Sequence record: PZ445521.1
DNA length: 64,000 nucleotides
From: a phage
Direction: 5' to 3' (one strand)
In this document: in pieces, positions 230-60,612 of the stretch
Layout of the letters: each line of letters starts with the position of its first letter
Position numbering within the stretch: position 1 is the first letter of the stretch
Made by a program: the position numbers and the translations under genes
The notes under the pieces: generated by a model
Database searches by the model: none
Told to the model about the DNA's origin: nothing
The model's input: the letters and a program-made list of their open reading frames with translations, nothing else

Positions 230-310
230 TTTATTCTCCTTTGTTTGTGTAAAATAATACTATCACAAAGGAACCATACTGTAAACAACTTTGTGCAATC
301 TTTGGAAAAT

Positions 311-334
311 AAAAAAGGACTCCCGAAGGAGTCC
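311..334 (-). terminator. C(UUCG)G stem-loop / rho-independent terminator
   Basis: Inverted repeat ggactcc-cgaa-ggagtcc at 317..334 preceded by A6 on plus strand, i.e. hairpin plus U6 on the minus-strand transcript. Confidence 0.6.
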
Positions 335-339
335 TCAAC

Positions 340-558
340 TTATGCTTTCTGCTTACCAAAACGAGAAGCATCATCTCGAAGAACCGCACGTGCTCGGCGC
401 ATGATCTTCTCAACAGTTTGATTGATACGAGAGTTCGACCCACGCTTGTAACCAGCGCGTTTAGAATCACCAACTTTCTTTTCAACTGCTTTCTTTGCTT
501 TAACTTGTTTTGCCATTATAAATTCTCTTTTAAATGAAAATGCAGGACTTATTGGCAT
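340..558 (-). CDS. small basic (Lys/Arg-rich) protein; alternative start at 516 (MAKQVKAKK...)
   Basis: ORF track; two in-frame ATGs (558, 516); the 558 start would overlap the upstream ORF by 10 nt. Confidence 0.5.
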   Translation of the reverse strand: MPISPAFSFKREFIMAKQVKAKKAVEKKVGDSKRAGYKRGSNSRINQTVEKIMRRARAVLRDDASRFGKQKA

Positions 559-2139: not shown

Positions 2140-2720
2140 TATTCACCACAGAATTCGTTGATATTTTCCCAGTTTAACTTATTCAAGTTTTTCTTAGGAA
2201 CATTAAACACTTCAATACCTGCATTTCGCAGAATATCATCCCAGCCAGGTTTATTTTTATCGTATGTTTCACAATAAACCAGCTTTTTAATTCCAGATTG
2301 AGCTATCGCTTTTGCACAATCTGGGCAAGGAGAAAGTGTTACATACATAGTAGCACCTTCAATAGAAGAACCATTTCGTGCAGCAAACAAAATCGCATTT
2401 AGTTCAGCGTGAATTTCATTTTTAGACGACCATTCAGAGTGAGCGCTACGGTGTTCTTTCGCCAAGACAAAACGATCAGTTGAACCAAACGATACGCATT
2501 CAGGCTTATGACCTTGAATGATAGTATGTTTAGGCTTGTTCAACAACCAGCCTTGTTCAGCAGCATAATCACAGCAATTCACACCACCAGCAGGTGAACC
2601 ATTATATCCGGTAGAAATAATACGTCCATTCTTTTCAATTACTGCTCCTACCTTCCAGGAGCAGCATTTTGATTCTTGCGATACTAAATATGCAATTTGA
2701 AGTACTGTACTCGCTTTCAT
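2139..2720 (-). CDS. cd: dCMP deaminase
   Basis: 193-aa ORF with zinc-binding HAE...PCxxC deaminase motifs (HAELNAI, SPCPDCAKAI). Confidence 0.9.
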   Translation of the reverse strand: MKASTVLQIAYLVSQESKCCSWKVGAVIEKNGRIISTGYNGSPAGGVNCCDYAAEQGWLLNKPKHTIIQGHKPECVSFGSTDRFVLAKEHRSAHSEWSSKNEIHAELNAILFAARNGSSIEGATMYVTLSPCPDCAKAIAQSGIKKLVYCETYDKNKPGWDDILRNAGIEVFNVPKKNLNKLNWENINEFCGE

Positions 2721-3055
2721 TTCATAATCACCAGATAAGCAGATTTAGCAGTTTCTACACGATAAATTTCGTGACGAAGTTTAGTTATACTTTTAATAAC
2801 AGAACTAATTATATTCTGCCCATCTTTAAAGCGGTTTTTCTTATCAATAAAAATTGCGCCAACCAGCTTTTTGTGAAGCTCAACTGGATACTTCGTCACA
2901 ATAATAGCATCATACACAGAAGGATGAATACTATTCACTAGAGTGTCATTCATTAAAGTTATTCTAATGAACTGTGCTGTTTCAGAGTCAAGCGCTCTAT
3001 GATCGCCAGTATCATTTTCAAGACAATTATCAATTATATCAGTTAAATTCATCAT
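2717..3055 (-). CDS. hypothetical protein (cd.1 position)
   Basis: ORF track; 4-nt overlap with cd. Confidence 0.5.
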   Translation of the reverse strand: MMNLTDIIDNCLENDTGDHRALDSETAQFIRITLMNDTLVNSIHPSVYDAIIVTKYPVELHKKLVGAIFIDKKNRFKDGQNIISSVIKSITKLRHEIYRVETAKSAYLVIMK

Positions 3056-3288
3056 AGTACGCCATACACCCTTTGTGCTTCAACTAATCCATCAAAATCC
3101 AATTTGAGATGTGTTATTTGGTCACCATCACCTGGATTCACAATTACTAATACTGAACGAGGAGTTTCGGTAATAACGCGAACCGATGTTTCTGGAAATC
3201 GTTCAGAAACCTTATTTACCAATTCCTGAGCAAATAGTTTAACTTTTTCTTGGAATTCTTTAACAGTAATTGGTTTTTCACTTAGCAT
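3052..3288 (-). CDS. hypothetical protein (cd.2 position)
   Basis: ORF track; 4-nt overlap upstream. Confidence 0.5.
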   Translation of the reverse strand: MLSEKPITVKEFQEKVKLFAQELVNKVSERFPETSVRVITETPRSVLVIVNPGDGDQITHLKLDFDGLVEAQRVYGVL

Positions 3289-3318
3289 TTTGTTTTCCTC
3301 ATTTGTTTCGGTAGAGCT

Positions 3319-3348
3319 ATAATATCACAACTCTACCACAAAGTAAAC
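3319..3348 (-). promoter_or_regulatory. T4-type early promoter (GTTTAC -35, 18-nt spacer, TATTAT -10)
   Basis: Minus strand reads GTTTACtttgtggtagagttgtgaTATTAT in the 64-nt gap upstream of ORF starting at 3288. Confidence 0.55.
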
Positions 3349-3352
3349 TATA

Positions 3353-3628
3353 TTAAATTGCTTTGAATTCTGATGTCTGCGATTCAAAACGAATATCACC
3401 TTTGATGACTAACTCAGCGTCAAGACCGAATACGACAATGATATGCGCGGAACCTGGATACAGCGTAATGGCAATAGAATCCACCTGGTCTGGAAGCAAA
3501 GTGTTCAATACATGAGTCACTTGAGCATGAATTCGAAGCTCGGCTGCGTTATCAAGCTTTTCAAACATATTATTAGCAATAATTTGGCTAAACACTACTT
3601 CTACGATTTTAGAATAAGTCGGAAACAT
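3353..3628 (-). CDS. hypothetical protein (cd.3 position)
   Basis: ORF track. Confidence 0.5.
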   Translation of the reverse strand: MFPTYSKIVEVVFSQIIANNMFEKLDNAAELRIHAQVTHVLNTLLPDQVDSIAITLYPGSAHIIVVFGLDAELVIKGDIRFESQTSEFKAI

Positions 3629-3630
3629 AT

Positions 3631-3831
3631 TTACCTCACATAATTTTCTTCAAGCCAATCAATAACATCTAACGCATTATCAAAAGTTGAACCATCTACT
3701 TTGTCTTCTGTTTCATAATCAAGAACATCTAAGCCTACTCTTCCATTAACAATAGGCCATAAACAAAATAAATATTTCTTTTCTTTTTCAATTTTATCAC
3801 AAAGTTGATAAATCTTTTCTATGTTATTCAT
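3631..3831 (-). CDS. hypothetical protein (cd.4 position)
   Basis: ORF track. Confidence 0.5.
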   Translation of the reverse strand: MNNIEKIYQLCDKIEKEKKYLFCLWPIVNGRVGLDVLDYETEDKVDGSTFDNALDVIDWLEENYVR

Positions 3832-4020
3832 AAGTTTTCCATGGTAAAGGCAGTTTAGTTTTCTTTACTGTTAGTTCAACATCAGGATTCTTTTCTCTTA
3901 ATTTAAGGCATTCCTCCCAAGCTCTGATTTCACTAGTGAATACACAAAATTGCCCATTACTAGTACCAACTAAACCACTATTTACAATAACAATAGACCA
4001 AGTTTCATGATGCCACGCCA

Positions 4021-4021
<1 letters not shown>
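3824..4021 (-). CDS. hypothetical protein (cd.5 position); start trimmed to internal ATG at 4021
   Basis: ORF track 3824..4051; internal Met gives TAATG junction with pseT stop. Confidence 0.45.
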
Positions 4022-5246
<1,225 letters not shown>

Positions 5247-5249
5247 TTA

Positions 5250-5474
5250 TTATTTCTCAACCAATGATTGAATATAATCATGCAGGTCTTTAGATGCTTT
5301 ACCCCACTTATTTTGGTATTCATTTTTAAGATTAGCACGTGATTGAGCTAATAAAACATCATTAGTTGGAGGTAAAGATTCTAACCGCTGAATCTGGCGT
5401 CCATAAATCATTGCAGCCATCTCGGATTCATAAATCAATCCTTTGAGATGTTCAAATTGATGCCATGAAATCAT
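5250..5474 (-). CDS. hypothetical protein
   Basis: ORF track; 4-nt overlap with next ORF. Confidence 0.5.
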   Translation of the reverse strand: MISWHQFEHLKGLIYESEMAAMIYGRQIQRLESLPPTNDVLLAQSRANLKNEYQNKWGKASKDLHDYIQSLVEK

Positions 5475-6678: not shown

Positions 6679-8266
<1,588 letters not shown>

Positions 8267-15073: not shown

Positions 15074-15334
15074 TTATTTTTGAATTTTATCGAGCCACTT
15101 ACCAGGCTTAATCATTTCTTTAGTAGCCTTTTCCATACTTCTGAACTTGACCAATAGAGGATAGGTATCGACACCCATAACTAAACTGGTTACAAGACTG
15201 TGTTCACCTACAAGCCATAACGAATACGTTTGAATACCGAGCCCGTAATTTCTGTCTTTATGGACCCGTACACCCATCACTTCAAATTTCTCACTAGCTT
15301 TTTCTACCGCATCCAGGAAATCATCTTTAGTCAT
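15074..15334 (-). CDS. hypothetical protein (frd-32 cluster); start trimmed to internal ATG
   Basis: ORF track 15074..15376; internal Met avoids 40-nt overlap. Confidence 0.45.
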   Translation of the reverse strand: MTKDDFLDAVEKASEKFEVMGVRVHKDRNYGLGIQTYSLWLVGEHSLVTSLVMGVDTYPLLVKFRSMEKATKEMIKPGKWLDKIQK

Positions 15335-16012: not shown

Positions 16013-16034
16013 CAGCAGTATTGCCGATAGTTGT

Positions 16035-16064
16035 ATAGTACCACAGTCCTTGTGGTATGTAAAC
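16035..16064 (-). promoter_or_regulatory. T4-type early promoter (GTTTAC / TACTAT, 18-nt spacer)
   Basis: Minus strand GTTTACataccacaaggactgtggTACTAT; cassette near-identical to 37408..37458. Confidence 0.6.
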
Positions 16065-16086
16065 TGTTTTGTGAAAAAATTTTTGA

Positions 16087-16114
16087 AATAAAAAAGGGGA
16101 CCCTAGAGGTCCCC
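16087..16114 (-). terminator. rho-independent terminator downstream of gene 32
   Basis: ggggacc-ctaga-ggtcccc hairpin preceded by A-run on plus strand (U-run after hairpin on minus transcript). Confidence 0.65.
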
Positions 16115-19995: not shown

Positions 19996-22900
19996 ATGGC
20001 CGAGATTAAAAGAAAGTTCAGAGCAGAAGATGGTCTGGACGCAGGTGGCGATAAAATAATCAACGTAGCTTTAGCTGATCGTACCGTAGGAACTGACGGT
20101 GTTAACGTTGATTACTTAATTCAAGAAAACACAGTTCAACAATATGATCCAACTCGTGGATATTTAAAAGATTTTGTAATCATTTATGATAACCGCTTTT
20201 GGGCTGCTATAAATGATATTCCAAAACCAGCAGGAGCTTTTAATAGCGGACGCTGGAGAGCATTACGTACAGATGCTAACTGGATTACGGTTTCATCTGG
20301 TTCATATCAATTAAAATCTGGTGAAGCAATTTCGGTTAACACTGCAGCTGGAAATGACATTACGTTTACTTTACCATCTTCTCCAATTGATGGCGATACT
20401 ATCGTTCTCCAAGATATTGGAGGAAAACCTGGAGTTAACCAAGTTTTAATTGTAGCTCCAGTGCAAAGTATTGTAAACTTTAGAGGTGAACAGGTACGTT
20501 CAGTACTAATGACTCATCCAAAGTCACAGCTAGTTTTAATTTTTAGTAATCGTCTGTGGCAAATGTATGTTGCTGATTATAGTAGAGAAGCTGTAATTGT
20601 AACACCAGCGAATACTTATCAAGCGCAATCAAATGATTTTATCGTACGTAGATTTACTTCTGCTGCACCAATTAATGTTAAACTTCCAAGATTTGCTAAT
20701 CATGGCGATATTATTAATTTCGTTGATTTAGATAAACTGAATCCACTTTATCATACAATTGTTACTACATACGATGAAACGACTTCAGTACAAGAAGTTG
20801 GAACTCATTCCATTGAAGGCCGTACATCGATTGACGGTTTCTTGATGTTTGATGATAATGAGAAATTGTGGAGATTGTTTGACGGGGATAGTAAAGCACG
20901 TTTACGCATTATAACGACTAATTCTAATATTCGTCCAAACGAAGAAGTTATGGTATTTGGTGCGAATAACGGAACAACTCAAACAATTGAGCTTCAGCTT
21001 CCAACTAATATTTCTGTTGGTGATACTGTTAAAATTTCCATGAATTACATGAGAAAAGGACAAACAGTTAAAATCAAAGCTGCCGGTGAAGATAAAATTG
21101 CTTCTTCAGTTCAATTGCTGCAATTCCCAAAACGTTCAGAATATCCGCCTGAAACTAAATGGGTAACTGTTCAAGAATTAGTTTTTAACGGTGAAACTAA
21201 TTATGTTCCAGTTTTACAGCTTGCTTATATAGAAGATTCTGATGGAAAATACTGGGTTGTACAGCAAAACGTTCCAACTGTAGAAAGAGTAGACTCTTTA
21301 AATGATTCTACTAGAGCAAGATTAGGCGTAATTGCTTTAGCTACACAGGCTCAAGCTAACGTCGATTTAGAAAATTCTCCACAAAAAGAATTAGCAATTA
21401 CTCCAGAAACATTAGCTAACCGTACTGCTACAGAAACTCGTAGAGGTATCGCAAGAATAGCAACTACTGCTCAAGTGAATCAGAACACCACATTCTCTTT
21501 TGCAGATGACCTTATCATCACTCCTAAAAAGCTGAATGAAAGAACAGCTACTGAAACTCGCAGAGGTGTTGCTGAAATTGCTACGCAGCAAGAAACTAAT
21601 ACAGGAACCGATGATACTACAATCATCACTCCTAAAAAGCTTCAAGCTCGTCAAGGTTCTGAATCATTATCTGGTATTGTAACTTTTGTATCTACTGCAG
21701 GTGCTACTCCAGCTTCTAGCCGTGAATTAAATGGTACGAATGTTTATAATAAAAACACTAATAATTTAGTTGTTTCACCTAAAGCTTTGGATCAGTATAA
21801 AGCTACTCCAACACAGCAAGGTGCAGTAATTTTAGCAGTTGAAAGTGAAGTAATTGCTGGACAAAGTCAGGAAGGATGGGCAAATGCGGTTGTAACGCCA
21901 GAAACGTTACATAAAAAGACATCAACTGATGCAAGAATTGGTTTAATTGAAATTGCTACGCAAAGTGAAGTTAATACAGGAACTGATTATACTCGTGCAG
22001 TCACTCCTAAAACTTTAAATGACCGTAGAGCAACTGAAAGTTTAAGTGGTATAGCTGAAATTGCTACACAGGTTGAATTCGACGCAGGCGTCGACGATAC
22101 TCGTATCTCTACACCATTAAAAATTAAAACCAGATTTAATAGTACTGATCGTACTTCTGTTGTTGCTCTATCTGGATTAGTTGAATCAGGAACTCTCTGG
22201 GACCATTATACCCTTAATATTCTTGAAGCAAATGAGACACAGCGTGGTACACTTCGTGTAGCTACACAGGTCGAAGCTGCTGCAGGAACATTAGATAATG
22301 TTTTAATAACTCCTAAAAAGCTTTTAGGTACTAAATCTACCGAATCGCAAGAAGGTGTTATTAAAGTTGCAACTCAGTCTGAAACTGTAGCTGGAACGTC
22401 AGCAAATACTGCTGTATCTCCAAAAAATTTAAAATGGATTGCGCAGAGTGAACCAACTTGGGCAGCTACTACTGCGATAAGGGGCTTTGTTAAAACTTCA
22501 TCTGGTTCAATTACATTCGTTGGTAATGATACAGTCGGTTCTACCCAAGATTTAGAACTGTATGAGAAAAATAGCTATGCGGTATCACCATATGAATTAA
22601 ACCGTGTATTAGCAAATTATTTACCGTTAAAAGCAAAAGCTGCTGATACAAATTTATTGGATGGTCTAGATTCATCTCAGTTCATTCGTAGGGATATTGC
22701 ACAGACGGTTAATGGTTCACTAACCTTAACCCAACAAACGAATCTGAGTGCCCCTCTTGTATCATCTAGTACTGCTACGTTTGGTGGTTCAGTTTCGGCA
22801 AATAGTACATTAACTATTTCTAATACTGGAACTGCAACTCGTCTGATTTTTGAGAAAGGACCTCAAACTGGAACTAACCCAGCACAGACGATGACTATTA

Positions 22901-24989: not shown

Positions 24990-24994
24990 ATTGA

Positions 24995-25017
24995 GGGAGC
25001 CTTCGGGTTCCCTTTTT
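24995..25017 (+). terminator. rho-independent terminator after gene 35
   Basis: gggagcc-ttcg-ggttccc hairpin followed by TTTTT. Confidence 0.65.
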
Positions 25018-25725: not shown

Positions 25726-28700
25726 ATGGCTACTTTAAAACAAATACAATTTAAAAGAAGCAAAACCGCAGGTGCACGTCCTGCTGCTTCAGTATTAGCC
25801 GAAGGTGAATTGGCTATAAATTTAAAAGATAGAACAATTTTTACTAAAGACGATTCAGGAAATATCATTGACTTAAGCATTTCCGCTGGCGGTAATATCA
25901 GTGGTAATATCACTCAAACTGGTGATTATACACAGACTGGAAAATTTAATTTAATTGGCCCGCAGATTATAGCAAGTGGTGGATATATTGAGTTTAATTA
26001 TCGTACTACTGGAAGTGGGGCTTGGTCCGGTCAACACACTGCAAAGGCTCCAATTTTTGTAGATTTAAGCTCAGCTACTTCCACATCTGAATATAATCCT
26101 ATAATTAAACAGCGCTTTAAAGATGGAACTTTTTCATTAGGTACTTTAGTTTCTGAAGGTTCGTTGAAGATTCATTATATTGATGAAACTGGTCAATCTA
26201 AATATTGGACATTTGCGCGCTCAGGTAATTTTCAAGTTGATTCTGGTAATTTATTAGTATCTGGTGGGTATTTAGTCGCTCAGAGTAATATTGAAACAAG
26301 AACAGGTTCTTTGATTGGTCCATCTGTTGTAACTAAAAATATTTCATTTGATACGAAAGCGTTTGGACAATACGATTCGCAGTCATTAGTTCAATATGTT
26401 TATCCTGGAACTGGTGAAACAAACGGAATTAATTACCTTCGTAAATTCCGTGCAAAATCTGGTGGTACGATTTATCATGAATTAGCTTCTGCACAAACCG
26501 GAAAAAGTGATGAACTGTCTTGGTGGACCGGTAATACAGCCGTTAATAAACAAATGGGCCTTCGCAATGATGGGTCTTTAGTGTTGCGACGCTCACTCGC
26601 AATTGGTACAATTACAACAGATGAAAACATTAATAATTACGGCTCAACTGGAGCAATGGGTGAATGCTATATAGTCATTGGAGATGCCGCAACTGGTGTA
26701 TCATATAAAAGATCTGGTGTATATGATTTAGTTGCTAATGGTCTTTCTATCGCGTCTATTACTCCTGACAGTTTCCGTAGTACTCGTAAAGCATTATTTG
26801 GACGTTCAGAAGACCAAGGCGGAACATGGAATATGCCTGGAACGAACGCCGCGTTTTTATCGGTTCAAACACAGGCTGATGAAAACACTGCTGGAGACGG
26901 TCAAACCCATATTGGATATAACTCTGGCGGTAAAATGAACCACTATTTCCGTGGTAAAGGAAAAACTAATATTAATACTCAAGAAGGCATGGAAGTTAAC
27001 CCGGGTATTTTGAAATTGGTAACTGGCTCTAATAATGTAATGTTTTATGCTGATGGCGGTATTACATCTGTTAAGCAGCTTTCAATATATAACGGCATAT
27101 ATTTAGCAGCTAATAATTCTACTGCTGGGCTAACATTCGCTCCAACTACTACAATTGATGGCACTAAGCAAATTTTGTGGGAAGGCGGTACTCGTGCTGG
27201 TCAGAATAAAAGCTATGTAACTGTTAAAGCATGGGGTAATTCATTTAACGCATCTGGCGATCGTAATCGTGAAACGGTTTTTGAAGTAGCTGATGGACAA
27301 GGATATTATTTTTATTCACAGCGTGTGGCTCCAAGTGGCTCTGAAACTACTGGGCCTGTTGTAACCCAGTTCAATGGACAAGTTAATGCTAGAGGAAGTA
27401 TTATTACTGACGGAAGTTTTAAAGTTAATGGATTAAGCACTTTAGTCGGTAATGTTACCATGTCTAATGGTTTGTTTGTTCAAGGTGGTTCTTCTATTAC
27501 AGGCCAAGTAAAAATTGGTGGAACAGCAGATGCATTAAGAATTTGGAATGCTGAATACGGGGCTATTTTCCGTCGTTCTGAAGATAAGCTTTATATTATT
27601 CCAACTCCGCAGAATGCTGGTGAATCAGGTGGTATTTCTAATTTACGTCCGTTCTATATTACATTAAGTACTGGTAAAGTTTCCATGGATCATGATGTAG
27701 ATATCGGCGGCGGTAGATTTAAAGTAGAAGTGGCTGGAACTACGGCTGGTCAACGTATTATAGTTAATGCAGCGAGCGATGCTATTAGAATAAATGCTCC
27801 AACACAAGAGTCTTCTAACTTCATTCAAGGACGTAAGGCTGATGTGAATAAATGGTATTTGGGTATTGGCGATGGCGGCAACGTCGTTCGTATGCACAGC
27901 TACACATATTCACATGGTATTGCATTAAATTCTGATTCTGTCGATATTACTAAGCCTCTTAAAGTCGGAAACGCCCAACTAGGAACTGACGGTAATATTA
28001 CCAATGGTTCAGGAAACTTTGCCAACTTAAATACCACGTTAAATCGTAAAGTTAATTCTGGATTTATTACTTATGGAGCAACCTCTGGATGGTATAAGTT
28101 TGCAACTGTAACAATGCCACAATCCACTTCAACAGTCTTCTTTAAAATAGTTGGAGGTTCTGGATTTAATAGCGGATTATTCACACAATGTAATATTGCT
28201 GAAATTGTTTTACGTACTAGTAATGAAAGACCTGCTGACTTAAATGCTGCATTATACACAAGAACAATTGGAGCTGCATTTAAAGATATTGCAGTTAATA
28301 ACGTCTCTGGAGATACATATGACATTTATGTTTCTGCTGGAACATATTGTAATCAATTAGCTTGTGAGTGGTCATGTACCGAAAATGCTACTGTTAGTGT
28401 TATTGGTATTAACTCATCTACACAATCACCTGTAGATGCTCTTCCAGATACAGCAGTTAACGGTCAAGTTGCTAATGTTCTTAATAACTTGGTTGATCGC
28501 GGTAAAGTTAAGCGTTATGAAGCCGATTCTGAAATAGCTATTAATAGCCCAACCGGTATTCGTATCAGAAGCAATGGCGATAAAACTGGTTCTGTGGCTA
28601 CAATGTTACGAAATGATGGCGGTAGTTTTTATATTCTGTTTACAGATAAAAATGCCACCGATGGCGCAGCAACTGTTAATGGTGATTGGAATAGTAAACG

Positions 28701-29488: not shown

Positions 29489-29517
29489 AGAGGGCTTCGG
29501 CCCTCTAAGGATTTTTT
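29489..29517 (+). promoter_or_regulatory. UUCG stem-loop between 37 and 38 overlapping gene 38 RBS region
   Basis: agagggc-ttcg-gccctct hairpin then aaggatttttt; ATG of 38 at 29519. Confidence 0.5.
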
Positions 29518-33721: not shown

Positions 33722-33762
33722 TTTCTAATCTCCGTAATTCTGTATCAGTAGTTGATAGTTGT

Positions 33763-33792
33763 ATAGTACCACAGTATGCTTTGGTTGTAAAC
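33763..33792 (-). promoter_or_regulatory. T4-type early promoter upstream of motA
   Basis: Minus strand GTTTAC-N18-TACTAT; shares the gatagttgtatagtaccaca cassette core with 16026.. and 37408.. Confidence 0.55.
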
Positions 33793-33816
33793 CGTTTTGT
33801 GAAAAAAATTTTAAAA

Positions 33817-33843
33817 TAAAAAAGGGAGAGCCTCGGCTCTCCC
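33817..33843 (-). terminator. stem-loop terminator after small ORF downstream of gene 52
   Basis: gggagagcc-tc-ggctctccc hairpin with flanking A-run on plus strand. Confidence 0.55.
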
Positions 33844-37382: not shown

Positions 37383-37416
37383 TTTATTCTCCAAATCCGT
37401 ATCAGTTGATAGTTGT

Positions 37417-37446
37417 ATAGTACCACGGTCCTTGTGGTATGTAAAC
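37417..37446 (-). promoter_or_regulatory. T4-type early promoter (GTTTAC-N18-TACTAT)
   Basis: Cassette 37408..37458 is about 50/51 identical to 16026..16076. Confidence 0.6.
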
Positions 37447-37465
37447 TGTTTTGTGAAATTTTTTT

Positions 37466-38023
37466 TTAAATGGAAAGATACCATCCGTTGTAGTTGCTTT
37501 TTCTTACAACCTTACGAAGGTCTTCTCTGTCACCGATGAACTTCGGAGTGTACTGGATGACACCTGGATGAATTTCTTTAGTGTTGAATATAATTATACA
37601 GTCAGCGACTTGATGATTTAGAATGGGCCCTAGATTTATTCCAGAACCGTATGGATACTCTCCGCTGCATCCTGTTGTTACAGAAATCCAACGTGAGTCA
37701 GTTTGGTGTGTCTTAACTTCTACACGAAGCCCGCAGTATCTTGGATGCGCCAATACATCCCATGCGTATGTATACGGGTCATTAACATCCTCTTGGCCTT
37801 TATTGACATATCCGCTTAGCCAATCTGCTACAAAAAATTCTGCGTACACAGCGATACGACATCTTTCAATAACTTCTGCTTTATCCTGGTTCGGGTTTTG
37901 TTTTAAAGAGTATCTTGCTGTATCAGCAATTTTGACCTTCATTTCACTAGTCAAGTCACTGTTCGATAGGGTAAATGTCGGAATCTGAAATAGTCTCTGT
38001 AAACCCGGATTCGTTTTCTGCAT
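37466..38023 (-). CDS. denB: endonuclease IV
   Basis: 185-aa ORF located beside rIIB as in T4. Confidence 0.8.
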   Translation of the reverse strand: MQKTNPGLQRLFQIPTFTLSNSDLTSEMKVKIADTARYSLKQNPNQDKAEVIERCRIAVYAEFFVADWLSGYVNKGQEDVNDPYTYAWDVLAHPRYCGLRVEVKTHQTDSRWISVTTGCSGEYPYGSGINLGPILNHQVADCIIIFNTKEIHPGVIQYTPKFIGDREDLRKVVRKSNYNGWYLSI

Positions 38024-38285: not shown

Positions 38286-38304
38286 AATTTTTCCTTAAAA
38301 CAAA

Positions 38305-38318
38305 AGGGCCGAAGCCCT
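38305..38318 (-). promoter_or_regulatory. C(UUCG)G intercistronic stem-loop
   Basis: agggc-cgaa-gccct (UUCG loop on minus transcript) between stop of 38324..38518 ORF and RBS of next gene. Confidence 0.55.
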
Positions 38319-38323
38319 TTATT

Positions 38324-38518: not shown

Positions 38519-38533
38519 AATTTTCCTTAGTTA

Positions 38534-38547
38534 AGGGCCGAAGCCCT
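38534..38547 (-). promoter_or_regulatory. C(UUCG)G intercistronic stem-loop after rIIB
   Basis: Second copy of agggccgaagccct immediately 3' of rIIB stop. Confidence 0.55.
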
Positions 38548-39485
38548 TATTTAAATTGTTCAGTAACGTCTTCAACTACTTCGTATTGGCAGGTACGCAT
38601 TTTAGCATCGTTGTAATCAATCGGAATTGATACTACATCACGCGGATGTACTTTAACTTTTACGACTCGGCTGGTTGAACTGCCAAAGTGACGAATATAA
38701 GATTTAGAACACACATGCAGACCACGAGAACAAGTTTGTGTATCATCGTCATTCACACGAGTACGTGGCATTTTAACTACTTTACCCGGACTGTTATCAA
38801 AGGTGTTTGAGTGACAGTCAAAGTAATTGCTGCGAACTACTTTCCAAGCATAGAAGTAACCATCTTCTGTAATTTCAATATCGTTTGCTACCAAGAAATC
38901 AAAGAGTCGAGATACCGCTTTTTGGCTTGGGTTTTCCAGCAGATTTTCCAAGAACGGAAAATAAAATTCAAAGTTTTCGCCTTTTTCCATCGAATCAAGA
39001 ATACGATCAACTAAACCAGACCGCAATTCAATATTTTGATAGAACAAGCTTCCACCTTCAATTCGAACATCGCCGGAAATATATTTTTCAACAGCGCGAC
39101 GAACATTAATTTTTTGTGCAGCTTCTTCCAGCCTATCCGCTACAAGCAGATTAAGAATTTCCTGGAAGTTTGAATGAGTATTAGGAGTTGCGTTATAAGT
39201 TACACCGTCAACAGTAATTGAAATGAATTTTTTAGATGCATTCCAAATAATGTCAGATTTAGCAACTGGAGCAATAACTGCATCGCTATTAACTTTAACT
39301 GTAATATCACCGCTAATAGTAACTTTAGAGCGTTTAGCTTCTTCAGCATTTTTCAAAACACGACGGATTGTGTCAACCGATACATCCTTCCAATAAGCTA
39401 ATTCCTGTTGGGTATAATTACCACTTGAATACAGTTTAACAATTTCAGCTTGTTCGTTTTTGGTCAGGCATTTAATATTGTACAT
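38547..39485 (-). CDS. rIIB: rIIB membrane-associated protein
   Basis: 312-aa ORF MYNIKCLTKNEQAEIVKLYSSGNYTQQELAYW.. Confidence 0.9.
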   Translation of the reverse strand: MYNIKCLTKNEQAEIVKLYSSGNYTQQELAYWKDVSVDTIRRVLKNAEEAKRSKVTISGDITVKVNSDAVIAPVAKSDIIWNASKKFISITVDGVTYNATPNTHSNFQEILNLLVADRLEEAAQKINVRRAVEKYISGDVRIEGGSLFYQNIELRSGLVDRILDSMEKGENFEFYFPFLENLLENPSQKAVSRLFDFLVANDIEITEDGYFYAWKVVRSNYFDCHSNTFDNSPGKVVKMPRTRVNDDDTQTCSRGLHVCSKSYIRHFGSSTSRVVKVKVHPRDVVSIPIDYNDAKMRTCQYEVVEDVTEQFK

Positions 39486-41942: not shown

Positions 41943-43763
41943 CTACTGGCTCATCCATTCTTTACGAAGGTCAGCATTATCTCCCATGAGCATTTCAAAA
42001 AGCTCTTTCCAGTTCTCAGGAAGTTTAACAACATCATATACTGGATTTTGAATCATCTCACGATATTCAGATTTTTCCAAAGAGCCAAGTCCCTTAATAT
42101 AACGGATGCTATGTTTAGGTAGAGCATCTTTGGCACTCTCATATTCAGCGACTGTATAAAACCATTCTTGTTTTTTACCGACCTGAGCGATGATTACAGG
42201 AGTTTTGACAAAGCGAATTCGTCCTTGCTCAAACAATTCTGGCCAATTACTAAAAAACCCGAGCAGAGAAGGATAAATGCTTCCTAGACCATCATGGTCA
42301 GCATCGGTCATAATAGCAATATTATGATAATTCAAGTTTTCAGCTTTTTCACCAAGAACTAATCCAGTGATTGCGCAAATATCAAACAGTTCTTTGTTTT
42401 TAAGCATATCAGCATATGACATACCCCAACTGTTGAGAACTTTACCACGCAATGGATAACCACCATGAAGTTCTTTATCACGAACATCAATAAGATATCC
42501 GATAGCAGAATCACCCTCAGTCAAGAAAAGAGTAGTATCAGCATCTTTACCACAAAGATTCGCTTTGATATGTTTATGAACCTTAGCTTTAGAAGCCTTT
42601 TTAGCTGCTTTAGTTTCTGCTGCTTTTTCTGCTGCCAATTTACGGGCCAAGGCAGCTTCAATAATCGGCATTAAAATTGCTTCATTATTTAGAATAGCGC
42701 GTGAAATCTTTTTAGCATCAAGTTGAATATGACTACGAATTTCACCAAAAGGAGAAGTAAGTCGTTCTTTAGTTTGAGAATCAAATCGCATGTTTTTCAT
42801 ATCACGGACAAACATAACGATAGTCAAACATTCTTTAACGCGTGCTTTAGTTACATCAATTTTGAACTTACGTTTGATTTGTGGAATAAGGTCTTCACAA
42901 ATATCATCCATAACACAGTCAATGTGATGGCCACCATTCTTAGTGTGAATGTTATTCACATAAGTTAATTGGCGAAATCCATCCGGTGAACGACCAACCG
43001 CAATAGAACAATTTTCTTGTTCTTGAACAATAGCATGTTCATCATACTGTCGTGCATATTTCTTAAAATTGCCCTGAACCTTTTTACCATTAAAGGTAAA
43101 TTGAATATCAGGATAAACAACAGCAAGTGTCTGGAGACGATCTAGTGTAATGTCAAGATAAACTTGGGACAGCTCATTAGTTTCAAATGACATAAAATCA
43201 GGAATGAAAGTAACACGGGTTCCTTTCCATTTTCCTGGAATAGTTTCCCATGATTTATTTTCCATGCCATTTGAACAACGAACTACAATATTATTTTGAC
43301 CATCGCCAGTTTCACCGACAAACATCACAGAAAAAATGTTAGTTAAACTAGAACCAACACCATTCATACCACCGGTGACACGTTCTTTATCATCACCGAA
43401 GTTACCACCCGCTTTTGGAATAGTCCAAGCAGCAACTGGACCAGGAATTTCTTCACCGGTAGGTGTTTTAACCATCGCTTGTGGAATACCGCGACCGTTA
43501 TCTTCAACTGTTACCTGATTATTTTTAATGGTAACATTAATTTTATTCGCGAATTTAAACTTAGTACGAATACCTTCATCGACTGAGTTATCGATAATTT
43601 CATCAATAAGCTTAACAAGACCAGGTACATACTGAACACTTTCCCATTTACCAAACAGAAAGCGCTCATGCATTTCATTAGCAGAAGAGCCAATATACAT
43701 GCCGCTACGCTTTTTGATATGTTCAATATCGCTCAGAATTTTAATTTCATTCTTAATCATCAC
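41943..43763 (-). CDS. 39: DNA topoisomerase II large subunit, unsplit (39 and 60 equivalents in one ORF)
   Basis: 606-aa continuous GyrB-like ORF (GHKL ATPase N-terminus, Toprim region). Confidence 0.9.
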   Translation of the reverse strand: MMIKNEIKILSDIEHIKKRSGMYIGSSANEMHERFLFGKWESVQYVPGLVKLIDEIIDNSVDEGIRTKFKFANKINVTIKNNQVTVEDNGRGIPQAMVKTPTGEEIPGPVAAWTIPKAGGNFGDDKERVTGGMNGVGSSLTNIFSVMFVGETGDGQNNIVVRCSNGMENKSWETIPGKWKGTRVTFIPDFMSFETNELSQVYLDITLDRLQTLAVVYPDIQFTFNGKKVQGNFKKYARQYDEHAIVQEQENCSIAVGRSPDGFRQLTYVNNIHTKNGGHHIDCVMDDICEDLIPQIKRKFKIDVTKARVKECLTIVMFVRDMKNMRFDSQTKERLTSPFGEIRSHIQLDAKKISRAILNNEAILMPIIEAALARKLAAEKAAETKAAKKASKAKVHKHIKANLCGKDADTTLFLTEGDSAIGYLIDVRDKELHGGYPLRGKVLNSWGMSYADMLKNKELFDICAITGLVLGEKAENLNYHNIAIMTDADHDGLGSIYPSLLGFFSNWPELFEQGRIRFVKTPVIIAQVGKKQEWFYTVAEYESAKDALPKHSIRYIKGLGSLEKSEYREMIQNPVYDVVKLPENWKELFEMLMGDNADLRKEWMSQ

Positions 43764-43813
43764 TTATCCTCGTTTGGTTTCGGGAATATTATACTCCAGT
43801 AATCATAAAGCTA

Positions 43814-43829
43814 AAGGCCCGAAGGCCTT
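43814..43829 (-). promoter_or_regulatory. C(UUCG)G stem-loop downstream of lipoprotein ORF
   Basis: aaggcc-cgaa-ggcctt immediately after stop at 43831. Confidence 0.5.
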
Positions 43830-43830
43830 T

Positions 43831-54348: not shown

Positions 54349-54554
54349 TACAAAAAGCCTCTTTTGAATTCGACTTGCTTTTCACCATAATCATATCGAA
54401 TCTCTGCATTAAATTCGACAGAACCATCTGCGTACATCATAAATGAATGCACAACAACTTCTGTAGACCATGGTTGCAATTCATATTTCTTCATTACATG
54501 TCGTGAAATGATAATATCTAAATCTTCATTCGGTTTAATCCAACGATTTAACAT
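54348..54554 (-). CDS. hypothetical small protein
   Basis: ORF track; early promoter GTTTAC..TGGTATAAT upstream at about 54575..54612. Confidence 0.5.
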   Translation of the reverse strand: MLNRWIKPNEDLDIIISRHVMKKYELQPWSTEVVVHSFMMYADGSVEFNAEIRYDYGEKQVEFKRGFL

Positions 54555-54620
54555 AGTGCTCTCCTCTATAAGATAATTCTATTATACCATACTCATTTTG
54601 GAAAGTAAACCGTTTAAATG

Positions 54621-54647
54621 AAAAAAAAAGGACTCCCGAAGGAGTCC
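54621..54647 (-). terminator. C(UUCG)G stem-loop terminator downstream of soc
   Basis: Same 18-nt hairpin ggactcccgaaggagtcc as at 317..334, preceded by A9. Confidence 0.6.
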
Positions 54648-54653
54648 TTGAAT

Positions 54654-54899
54654 TTATTCACCAGTTACTTTCCACAAATCTTCATTTGCAGCAATCCATT
54701 CAGTACGTTGATTTTCTTCATATACTGTAGAATATGCTGCTTTTTCTGAAGGGAATGTCTGGTAATGAGCTCCAGAAATTTTGTGAACGTCAGAATAAAG
54801 AGGGAAAGCTACGGAAATTTCCTTTCCTTCAATTTTCTTATTTCCATCTAATTTCTGCTCAAATGTTTTGATATTAACATAACCGCGAGTACTAGCCAT
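54654..54899 (-). CDS. soc: Soc small outer capsid protein
   Basis: 80/81-aa ORF MASTRGYVNIKTFEQKLDGNKKIEGKEISVAFPLYSDVHKISGAHYQTF.. matches T4 Soc as recalled. Confidence 0.85.
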   Translation of the reverse strand: MASTRGYVNIKTFEQKLDGNKKIEGKEISVAFPLYSDVHKISGAHYQTFPSEKAAYSTVYEENQRTEWIAANEDLWKVTGE

Positions 54900-54929
54900 G
54901 TAATTCTCCTTTTATTTAAATTACATGAT

Positions 54930-56800: not shown

Positions 56801-56965
56801 TTACTCTTCTTTTTCTTTAGATTCCTCTTTTTTCTTTTTAGGAATCTGTTCAGGACCTTTATTTACTACAGCACCTGATGTTGTTCCAGTAGAGATATTT
56901 TCAGGATTACCACCTGAATCTCCAGCAACCATATCTTCTTTAATAAATTCTTTATATGTTTTCAT
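56801..56965 (-). CDS. hypothetical small Lys/Glu-rich protein (54 aa), not in ORF track
   Basis: MKTYKEFIKEDMVAGDSGGNPENISTGTTSGAVVNKGPEQIPKKKKEESKEKEE; stop 2 nt before gene 61 ATG. Confidence 0.45.
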   Translation of the reverse strand: MKTYKEFIKEDMVAGDSGGNPENISTGTTSGAVVNKGPEQIPKKKKEESKEKEE

Positions 56966-56966
56966 A

Positions 56967-57323
56967 TTAACCTCTATTCATAAAAGCATTAAAAATTTGG
57001 TCATCAATAGATGGCGCAGTAATATTTTCTGCATCATTTAGCAAATCATTAATTTCATCGGATAGCATAACACATGTACCTTTATTTCCTGTAATTGTTA
57101 CTGCACAATTACGAACGTTTTCTTTATCAAATTTTAGGTTAATATTTTCGTAGTGAAAATCCTTTAATGCCGAATATATCTTTAAAATGAAATTGTCTTT
57201 TACTACAATAAACCCAACCTCACTATTAAAACGCGGTTCATGGAAACTGTAATAAACCTTTTCATCTATAAAATCGTATGAAATTTTTTCCATTTTTAAA
57301 TATGAAAATTCAGAACTATACAT
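56967..57323 (-). CDS. hypothetical protein, single-domain member of a VKDN / SIDDQIFNAFMN family (61.1 position)
   Basis: 118 aa; C-terminus SIDDQIFNAFMNRG shared with next ORF. Confidence 0.55.
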   Translation of the reverse strand: MYSSEFSYLKMEKISYDFIDEKVYYSFHEPRFNSEVGFIVVKDNFILKIYSALKDFHYENINLKFDKENVRNCAVTITGNKGTCVMLSDEINDLLNDAENITAPSIDDQIFNAFMNRG

Positions 57324-57324
57324 A

Positions 57325-57957
57325 TTAACCTTTATTCATAAAAGCATTAAAAATTTGATCGTCAATAGAAACTTTTACTTTAGGCTGTTCTTCAAACGGT
57401 AATTCATATCCACATATTACAATTTTGTGATCGATACCAAAATACACAGAAGCAATATTATTAATATTATTTTCAGTGAAATCTAAATCAACATCAATAT
57501 CTTTTTGACTAACGCTCAAAGGATAATTAATACGAATAATTCGATTATCTTTAACAAAGATTCCACCGACATACTCTGTGCTGCGTTTAAAGTTTACACG
57601 TTTCCTAAATGAAAAATATTCAGGTTCTTTATGGGCTCGACTCATAGGGCTTAAAGTGTATTCCGAATATGAAATATCAAATCCTACACCTTCAATATGA
57701 GCCAAAGTATCATGATTAAACCAATTATAATCGTATGCCAAATCCATTAAATTGTAATATGTGAAAGGCACCGGATTAACATCATATGTTGTACCTTTAA
57801 AATCTGCCCAGGCAACGATTTCGTTATCTTTAACAATTACAAAAATTGTGCCAATAAGATATCCACGGTTATTTTCATCAGGTGTTATATTATAACATTG
57901 TGCATCAGGAAATTTACCGTATTTAAACGGTGGATTTTTGTGCATATAATAAATCAT
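57325..57957 (-). CDS. hypothetical protein with two copies of the VKDN domain (61.2 position)
   Basis: 210 aa; internal repeats IFVIVKDNEIVAW / GIFVKDNRIIRI; C-terminus SIDDQIFNAFMNKG. Confidence 0.55.
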   Translation of the reverse strand: MIYYMHKNPPFKYGKFPDAQCYNITPDENNRGYLIGTIFVIVKDNEIVAWADFKGTTYDVNPVPFTYYNLMDLAYDYNWFNHDTLAHIEGVGFDISYSEYTLSPMSRAHKEPEYFSFRKRVNFKRSTEYVGGIFVKDNRIIRINYPLSVSQKDIDVDLDFTENNINNIASVYFGIDHKIVICGYELPFEEQPKVKVSIDDQIFNAFMNKG

Positions 57958-60249: not shown

Positions 60250-60612
60250 TTAAAAGAATTTAAACTTTTTCTTTGACCTTTTATTAAATGCATCTTGTAG
60301 TTGCATTGTAATACATTTTTCTACATGAGGAGCTAACTCAGCTTTTCTTTCTTGGTCAAGAACAGCAAAGTCCATTACAACCTTTCCATCAACCCAATCC
60401 AGTTTTGTTACATACACTATATGTGTAGAACCATCTTCTAGTTTAATGACAATCTCCTGGATAACATTTTCCATGGCAGATTTAATTATCTTAAGAGACT
60501 CATTAAAAAGACGTTCTTTTCTTTCTTCTTCCCCCTCCGAAGAGGGGGATTCATCGATAATTTCTAGATCTAAATCTAAATCATCTTTATTCATTAAATT
60601 CTTCCATATCAC
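60250..60612 (-). CDS. 40: gp40 head vertex assembly chaperone (alternative start at 60594)
   Basis: 120-aa ORF between 41 and uvsX as in T4. Confidence 0.7.
   Translation of the reverse strand: MIWKNLMNKDDLDLDLEIIDESPSSEGEEERKERLFNESLKIIKSAMENVIQEIVIKLEDGSTHIVYVTKLDWVDGKVVMDFAVLDQERKAELAPHVEKCITMQLQDAFNKRSKKKFKFF

Follow-up and report, generated by a model that had tools for sequence, protein, structure and literature searches.

Hairpins in which a UUCG tetraloop is closed by a C-G pair, C(UUCG)G, were described in the intercistronic regions of phage T4 by Tuerk et al. (1988, PNAS 85:1364), as that work is cited in PMC8948821 and PMC7165471, and were re-counted in the latter study from the Gold laboratory. 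According to that count, complementary arms enclose over half of the sense-strand CTTCGG occurrences in T4 and none of those on the antisense strand (PMC7165471). The literature describes the CUUCGG hairpins as a functionally mixed class (PMC8948821). Two other described systems are close to the locus examined here. The first is the canonical Rho-independent terminator of E. coli and its phages, with a G+C-rich stem, a 4-nt loop and a 3' U-run just past a stop codon. The second is the promoter-early stem-loop (PeSL) cassette of phages RB49 and phi1 (Arbiol et al. 2010, PMC2839356), in which an intergenic stem-loop terminator is combined with a sigma70-type early promoter, in units that are repeated genome-wide and tied to mosaic junctions. 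Additionally, the structural model GGAC(UUCG)GUCC studied by NMR (Cheong, Varani & Tinoco 1990), as far as it is presented in the work citing it (PMC3972237), shares the outer four pairs, the loop and the closing pair with the hairpins below, its 4-bp stem being unlike that of GGACUCC(UUCG)GGAGUCC.

The stretch of DNA analysed here (64,000 nucleotides, referred to as the window) was 100% identical to Shigella phage JK38 (MK962755.1), a Tequatrovirus, in two megablast searches, and megablast also returned hundreds of T4-like relatives at 80-98% identity. Local BLAST placed window positions 1-39496 at JK38 127627-167852, less one 730-bp tandem copy within gene 37, and positions 39497-64000 at JK38 1-24504. 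The genes of the window run from 30.8, rIII, 31, the nrd/td/frd genes and 32 through the tail-fibre genes 34-38, rIIB and rIIA to uvsX and 42. The 730-bp stretch of gene 37 is single in the window (27701-28430) and in tandem double in MK962755.1, which annotates gp37 as two overlapping CDS; the second copy in that record probably arose in assembly, or else the window represents a sister genome or a corrected one. Separately, close to genes 61.1 and 61.2, a 49-nt direct repeat at 56963-57011 and 57321-57369 (family D4; 94% identity, spacing 358 nt) spans a minus-strand start codon and Shine-Dalgarno region.

A sequence-only reading of the window had pointed to one 18-nt hairpin present identically at 317-334 and 54630-54647, preceded in each case by an A-run and located in each case just downstream of a minus-strand gene. 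An exact search confirmed that GGACTCCCGAAGGAGTCC occurs at these two places and nowhere else in the window; no further copy was found there at up to 2 mismatches, and shuffled sequences gave 0 matches. On the sense (minus) strand, both copies read GGACUCC-UUCG-GGAGUCC followed by U6-U9, so that the A-runs beside them on the plus strand (A6 and A9) are the U-runs on the 3' side of the hairpin in the sense strand. The minus-strand genes are 30.9 and soc, respectively.

Site 1 (311-336, minus strand) consists of GAGGACUCC-UUCG-GGAGUCCUU with its U-run and begins 5 nt past the stop codon of the gene 30.9 homologue (340-516, minus strand; 58 aa, identified through the JK38 and T4 annotation), in the interval between that gene and gene 30.8, which ends at 229. 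Site 2 (54621-54649, minus strand) consists of AAGGACUCC-UUCG-GGAGUCCUU with U7 (U9 when counted from the 18-mer), and lies 6 nt past the stop codon of soc, annotated as the small outer capsid protein (54654-54899, minus strand), between soc and mrh.2. Sequence, fold and a terminator scan all designate the two sites as intrinsic terminators, at which transcripts of 30.9 and soc would end. The scan of the minus strand picked up both, each with a 9-pair stem containing 5 G-C pairs. Past the extended stems the tails are UUUUAUUUUC and UUUUUUUCAU; counted from the end of the 18-mer, the U-tracts are UUUUUUAUUUU (site 1) and UUUUUUUUUCAUUU (site 2). A calculation of RNA folding energy, which the earlier reading had proposed as a check, gave minimum free energies of -16.4 and -15.1 kcal/mol for the two sites, well below those of shuffled controls (z-scores of -3.7 and -4.5).

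Annotations in related phages agree with this assignment. The same 18 bases on the same strand at the orthologue of site 1 (MK373779.1, 129742-129759), and the same 18 bases at the orthologue of site 2 (NC_054917.1, 15766-15783), are both annotated as "putative transcriptional terminator, -16.30". A search of the whole window against Rfam 15 returned 0 matches at or above the gathering score, and the literature searched yielded no mapping of transcript 3' ends, by Term-seq or S1, at these sites in T4-like phages. Both sites thus show the features of the canonical intrinsic terminator, namely a stable G+C-rich hairpin with a 4-nt loop, an immediate U-tract, and a sense-strand position just after a stop codon; they differ from it in that the UUCG loop confers more stability at equal stem length. 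With the T4 C(UUCG)G class they share the phage group, the loop and closing C-G pair (CC-UUCG-GG), the over-representation, the bias towards sense-strand and intergenic positions, and the compensatory changes described below. No difference of substance separates them from that class, the window representing another Tequatrovirus species (JK38-like).

Altogether, the two copies are very probably Rho-independent terminators of a T4-like phage, on the minus strand and of the C(UUCG)G class, with termination in vivo as the function that these features point to. The proposal of the sequence-only reading that such hairpins serve as terminators, as stabilisers of mRNA 3' ends, or as both, is supported in this way by the terminator features, the predicted folds, the annotation of relatives and membership in the T4 CUUCGG class.

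Both terminators are followed on the same strand, about 20-45 nt downstream, by promoter-like sites. For gene 30.8, the T4 early-type promoter match TTTACA-N17-TAGTAT with TG (257-285, minus strand; repeat family D13) lies ~30 nt downstream of the site 1 U-run, and for mrh.2 the match is TTTACT-N17-TATAAT with TG (54581-54609, minus strand; repeat family D1); both are matches to the consensus only. When the two focal intergenic regions were aligned with the regions of four further early promoters in the window, a common layout emerged of stop codon, hairpin, U-run, A/T-rich block, GTTTAC, spacer and -10 box.

This layout, in which TTTAC-N17-TAnnAT comes after a terminator on the same strand, is that of the PeSL cassettes, in so far as consensus matches identify promoters. 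The resemblance has its limits. The stems of PeSL consist for the most part of polyG/polyC and are usually placed within or beside the -35/-10 elements, whereas the focal hairpins lie upstream of the promoter. Moreover, PeSL copies are similar over ~100 bp, whereas the focal copies share 25 nt only and their flanks are at background identity. Other early-promoter cassettes of the window (16026-16098, 33754-33826 and 37408-37480, and also 7829-7850) carry different hairpins, and three of them share 85% over 73 nt (family D1). In the spacer between -35 (GTTTAC) and -10 (TACTAT), the family D1 cassettes contain a small inverted repeat, CCACA-AGGAC-TGTGG, which is the arrangement described for the RB49/phi1 PeSL cassettes (PMC2839356).

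A mechanism can be proposed in which RNA polymerase, on passing through gene 30.9 (site 1) or soc (site 2), would synthesize GGACUCC-UUCG-GGAGUCC, and the stable tetraloop hairpin would form in the RNA exit channel while a weak rU:dA hybrid (U6-U9) occupied the active site, so that the transcript would be released. The hairpin remaining at the 3' end of the mRNA could then shield it from 3' exonucleases, and the early-type promoter 20-45 nt downstream would restart transcription for 30.8 or mrh.2. Given a terminator and a following promoter, we infer that each site joins the two in a way that insulates adjacent transcription units from each other. In vivo, this sequence of events would result in termination and stabilisation at the two sites.

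The position of the UUCG loop relative to the coding strand bears on whether these elements act as RNA. All eight strong hairpins of the window carry UUCG on the sense strand, which is the minus strand in the early regions and the plus strand in the tail-fibre region, and a survey of the complete T4 genome gave the same result for C(UUCG)G hairpins whose stems have 6 bp or more (20 of 20). Since a hairpin on the opposite strand would carry a CGAA loop, the exclusive use of UUCG in the sense strand argues for selection on the RNA. A DNA-level role, as a cruciform or a protein-binding inverted repeat that serves as a target for recombination or nucleases, could draw on the capacity of perfect inverted repeats to extrude as cruciforms and on the link between GGGC/GCCC motifs and T4 deletions (discussed in PMC2839356). 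A DNA palindrome is strand-neutral, though, and the loops are UUCG rather than CGAA on the sense strand in every case counted, here (8/8) and in T4 (20/20), with the U-run solely on the 3' side of the sense strand; we regard a DNA-level role as highly improbable.

Conservation in related phages also indicated that the RNA structure is maintained. T4 itself carries the identical pair of hairpins, at 15305-15322 and 130341-130358. The 1990 model oligonucleotide of Cheong, Varani and Tinoco is reportedly derived from this T4 hairpin. For more distant relatives, loci were collected from IMG/VR; Soc and gp30.8 as anchors gave few, non-overlapping genomes, and rIII proved the better anchor. Among the rIII-anchored T4-like loci, 27 of 40 have a C(UUCG)G hairpin at the 30.9 site, downstream of the conserved GCATAA gene end, with the stems GGACUCC, GGGACUC, GGGACUCC or GGGAGAC. 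At the soc site such a hairpin was present in 12 of 13 loci, even where Soc identity was only 47-65%, with the stems GGACUCC, GGAAUCC, GGAACC or GGGACUCC; one locus had another loop. Fifteen distinct variants were aligned on the loop over 9 pairs. In this alignment 96.3% of cells were paired, changes on both sides were seen at 6 of the 9 pairs, and the covariation score was matched by none of 500 shuffles, with slid controls reaching at most 64%. As pairing is kept by compensatory changes across genera, the hairpin structure is under selection at both sites.

The earlier reading had listed five further UUCG hairpins, all of which turned out to be real once their stems were extended, and had overlooked an eighth, at 60530-60549 on the minus strand. 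In the window, 9 hairpins combine a UUCG loop with a stem of at least 7 pairs, compared with a mean of 0.56 and a maximum of 4 in 200 dinucleotide shuffles, and eight of the nine are of the G+C-rich C(UUCG)G type. On stems of at least 7 bp that include at least 3 G-C pairs, the 4-nt loop seen most often in the window is UUCG. Seven of the eight strong C(UUCG)G hairpins are intergenic.

Three of the additional hairpins resemble terminators to differing degrees. The hairpin between tail-fibre genes 35 and 36 (24993-25014, plus strand; -16.9 kcal/mol) and the one downstream of denB.1 (38303-38320, minus strand) both have U-rich tails and are terminator-like, and the one between 39.1 and the topoisomerase gene 39 (43813-43830, minus strand; the same hairpin stands at T4 5381-5398), in which the tail is partly U-rich, is weakly so. 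Gene 39 itself, which encodes the topoisomerase large subunit, is a single unbroken gene in the window (41943-43760; JK38 2447-4264). Its T4 counterpart is split into 39 and 60, the latter containing a 50-nt translational bypass, and the bypass hairpin (T4 2834-2857) also belongs to the C(UUCG)G type. Compared with T4, the window lacks the gene 60 bypass hairpin and has an extra hairpin after gene 35, at 24993-25014. At the equivalent T4 position, between 155805 and 155868, the census of T4 hairpins lists nothing with a UUCG loop, so that close relatives differ by gain or loss of members of the class.

The remaining three hairpins have no U-run. The one at 29489-29506 (plus strand) lies between genes 37 and 38, is followed by the Shine-Dalgarno sequence of g38, and is probably an intercistronic element and not a terminator. 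The hairpin at 38532-38549 (minus strand) starts at the rIIB stop codon and is followed by the denB.1 Shine-Dalgarno sequence. The third, UCCCCCUC-UUCG-GAGGGGGA at 60530-60549 (-16.7 kcal/mol), lies 38 nt past the uvsX stop codon within the 5' coding part of gene 40, where it covers the codons SPSSEGE; the same hairpin stands at T4 22329-22348, and it may act as a 3' barrier for uvsX mRNA or as a translational element for gene 40. Elements of RNA stability, processing or translation are the more likely identity of these three. Because three of the eight hairpins of the window lack a U-run, the C(UUCG)G class is not made up exclusively of terminators, and some of its members must act solely as RNA stabilisers, processing barriers or translational elements.

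Due to this diversity, it has to be considered whether the two focal hairpins, too, act chiefly after transcription, as barriers to 3' exonucleases or as end-points of processing, with the polymerase mostly reading through. The members without a U-run (29489, 38532 and 60530) are still conserved in T4, and CUUCGG hairpins have been reported to stabilise T4 mRNA (PMC8948821). The focal sites, however, have long unbroken U-runs (U6 and U9) and downstream promoters of their own, a combination that is a signature of termination and would be needless for a pure stabiliser. The roles of stabiliser and terminator are not mutually exclusive either, and the two sites could in principle combine termination with post-transcriptional functions. 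A chiefly post-transcriptional role is for these reasons doubtful.

Whereas the functional part of the sequence-only reading held, its evolutionary part, that exact duplication suggests copying over convergence, is not established. The identity between the two copies comprises A + 18-mer + T6, a total of 25 nt only, beyond which the flanks are at background identity, and the pair is older than the split between T4 and JK38. Because T4 carries the same pair, it is not the product of a recent duplication, and both recent duplication and gene conversion within this genome were rejected on the grounds of the T4 pair and the unrelated flanks. A mobile repeat of the REP or MITE kind was likewise set aside, as there are only two copies in the window, with no shared flanks, and they occupy fixed orthologous positions in relatives. 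With regard to the behaviour of the two sites over time, the site 1 and soc hairpins agree with each other in Tequatrovirus and in contig 2974718797 (both GGGACUCC), and differ in contigs 2974742932, 2974497520 and 2974666281. Steady concerted evolution of the two sites is unsupported by this mixed picture, and the frequent differences within same-genome pairs indicate that no steady homogenisation takes place.

How often two terminators of this kind would share a stem by chance was estimated from a scan for AGG-NNN-CC-TTCG-GG-NNN-CCT, which leaves the centre of the stem free and returned at least 119 matches. Among the matches listed, 116 of 119 were fully paired and 102 of those 116 had a T-rich tail; as nearly all are paired and most have such a tail, they can be taken as real terminators. 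The 116 hairpins listed contained 33 types of central triplet, ACT and AGT together accounting for 6 (5%), and among these listed matches of the unbiased GG-NNN-CC sample the chance that two stems share their central triplet was about 0.05. A second, stem-specific scan for GGANTCC-TTCG-GGANTCC returned at least 83 matches, the central pair being complementary or G-U in 81 of the 83 listed. For both scans the fraction of paired centres among the matches listed (81/83 and 116/119) was used in place of a chance expectation. About half of the GGANTCC matches listed adjoin T4 homologues: amongst these, the stem follows soc, hoc, the topoisomerase gene and 30.9 in enteric T4-like phages, and g23, g32 and g19 in distant, mostly marine, T4-like contigs. 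Since only this one stem was searched for, the second scan is no proof of a preference for it.

In the distant, mostly marine contigs, whose gp23 is about 35-44% identical to that of T4, the capsid gene is directly followed by (GG)GGAGUCC-UUCG-GGACUCC(CC) and a U-run, which is the 7-bp stem of the window with its central pair flipped. The g23-linked IMG/VR loci include L042, L047, L049, L050, L054, L059, L066, L076-L078, L082, L083, L087, L091-L093, L095, L096, L099, L105, L110 and others. The same stem was also observed after g32 (L043, L058, L080, L081 and L085) and after g19 (L062 and L074).

Independent convergence on one stem within a small design space could account for the pair. The stem is ~7 bp long, starts with GG, which pairs with the CC before the U-run, and ends with CC, which provides the closing C-G pair and the stacking on UUCG, and so about three positions are free. 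All stems have G-rich 5' arms, the flanks of the two copies are unrelated, and T4 contains further hairpins that are repeated exactly at places unrelated to each other, AAGGGGC-TTCG-GCCCCTT (29952 and 110165) and AAAGGCC-TTCG-GGCCTTT (5381 and 125541); these duplicates, with shorter stems, show that a small design space yields repeats. The diversity of triplets noted above nevertheless means that, among the matches listed, a 7-bp match is expected for only ~1 in 20 pairs, and the same triplet recurs at several more sites in related phages. With a triplet-sharing chance of ~5% and the same stem at other T4-like sites, the focal hairpins are not independent random draws, and we consider convergence as the source of the identity rather unlikely.

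The alternative, that a 25-nt terminator module spread by recombination between intergenic regions in a PeSL-like manner and marks mosaic junctions, is a serious possibility, to which we give somewhat less than an even chance. The occurrence of the same stem after hoc, soc, the topoisomerase gene, 30.9, g23, g32 and g19 in other T4-like genera, the low chance of triplet sharing among the matches listed in the unbiased sample (about 5%), the repeated terminator-promoter cassettes within the window (family D1) and the existence of the described PeSL model (PMC2839356) are all in its favour. Two individual loci also fit. In locus L297 (IMGVR_UViG_2706795719_000001), two copies of AAGGAGAC-TTCG-GTCTCCTT, in RNA AAGGAGAC-UUCG-GUCUCCUU, stand +128 and +477 nt after rIII, 350 nt apart, with flanks that resemble each other (aaataa[a/t]ttt ... 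ttttg[t/a]tttta); here a terminator has been duplicated locally along with the sequence on either side of it. In locus L012 (IMGVR_UViG_3300006879_000208), aligned with window 54400-54900, identity switches exactly at the soc hairpin, from 64-79% upstream (the soc allele) to 95-97% downstream (the promoter and mrh.2). This mosaic junction, the one case at the soc hairpin, is suggestive and would fit terminators acting as recombination boundaries, as proposed for PeSL. Against the spread of a module stand the background identity of the window copies' flanks beyond 25 nt, the age of the pair, which occupies orthologous positions in T4 and other genera, the three contigs in which same-genome pairs differ (2974742932, 2974497520 and 2974666281), and the ascertainment bias of a scan for this stem alone. 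As to the flanks shared by hoc and soc in Klebsiella-type T4-like phages, their value as proof of copying was weakened, because the tail UUUUUUGCUUU also follows a non-UUCG hairpin (L009) and may therefore be functional in itself.

From sequence comparison, then, the identity of the two hairpins fits either an old copying of a terminator module or a stem preferred in this lineage, and it is best read as the apparent retention of one preferred T4-lineage terminator stem rather than as a recent duplication. A more far-reaching form of this idea is that GGA(C/G)UCC-UUCG-GGA(G/C)UCC is a preferred and propagating module of the T4 superfamily, either copied by recombination or recognised by a conserved factor. 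Among the matches listed, the module recurs after the highly expressed genes g23, g32, g19, soc and hoc, from enteric to marine phages, and each arm of the stem is a near-palindrome containing GGAG, the RegB motif. We regard this wider proposal as improbable.

The two hairpins are very probably ordinary stop signals of a T4-like phage, already annotated in relatives and part of known biology. Their value lies mainly in correct annotation: the 30.9 and soc transcription units would end at them, and together with the promoters that follow they would set the boundaries between transcription units in a T4-like genome. Additionally, the combination of UUCG in the sense strand only with covariation of the stem across genera is a useful internal control for selection at the RNA level. 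The recurrence of one stem across the T4 superfamily raises a small question in phage genome mosaicism; if recombination copies this module between intergenic sites, it would help to define mosaic breakpoints.
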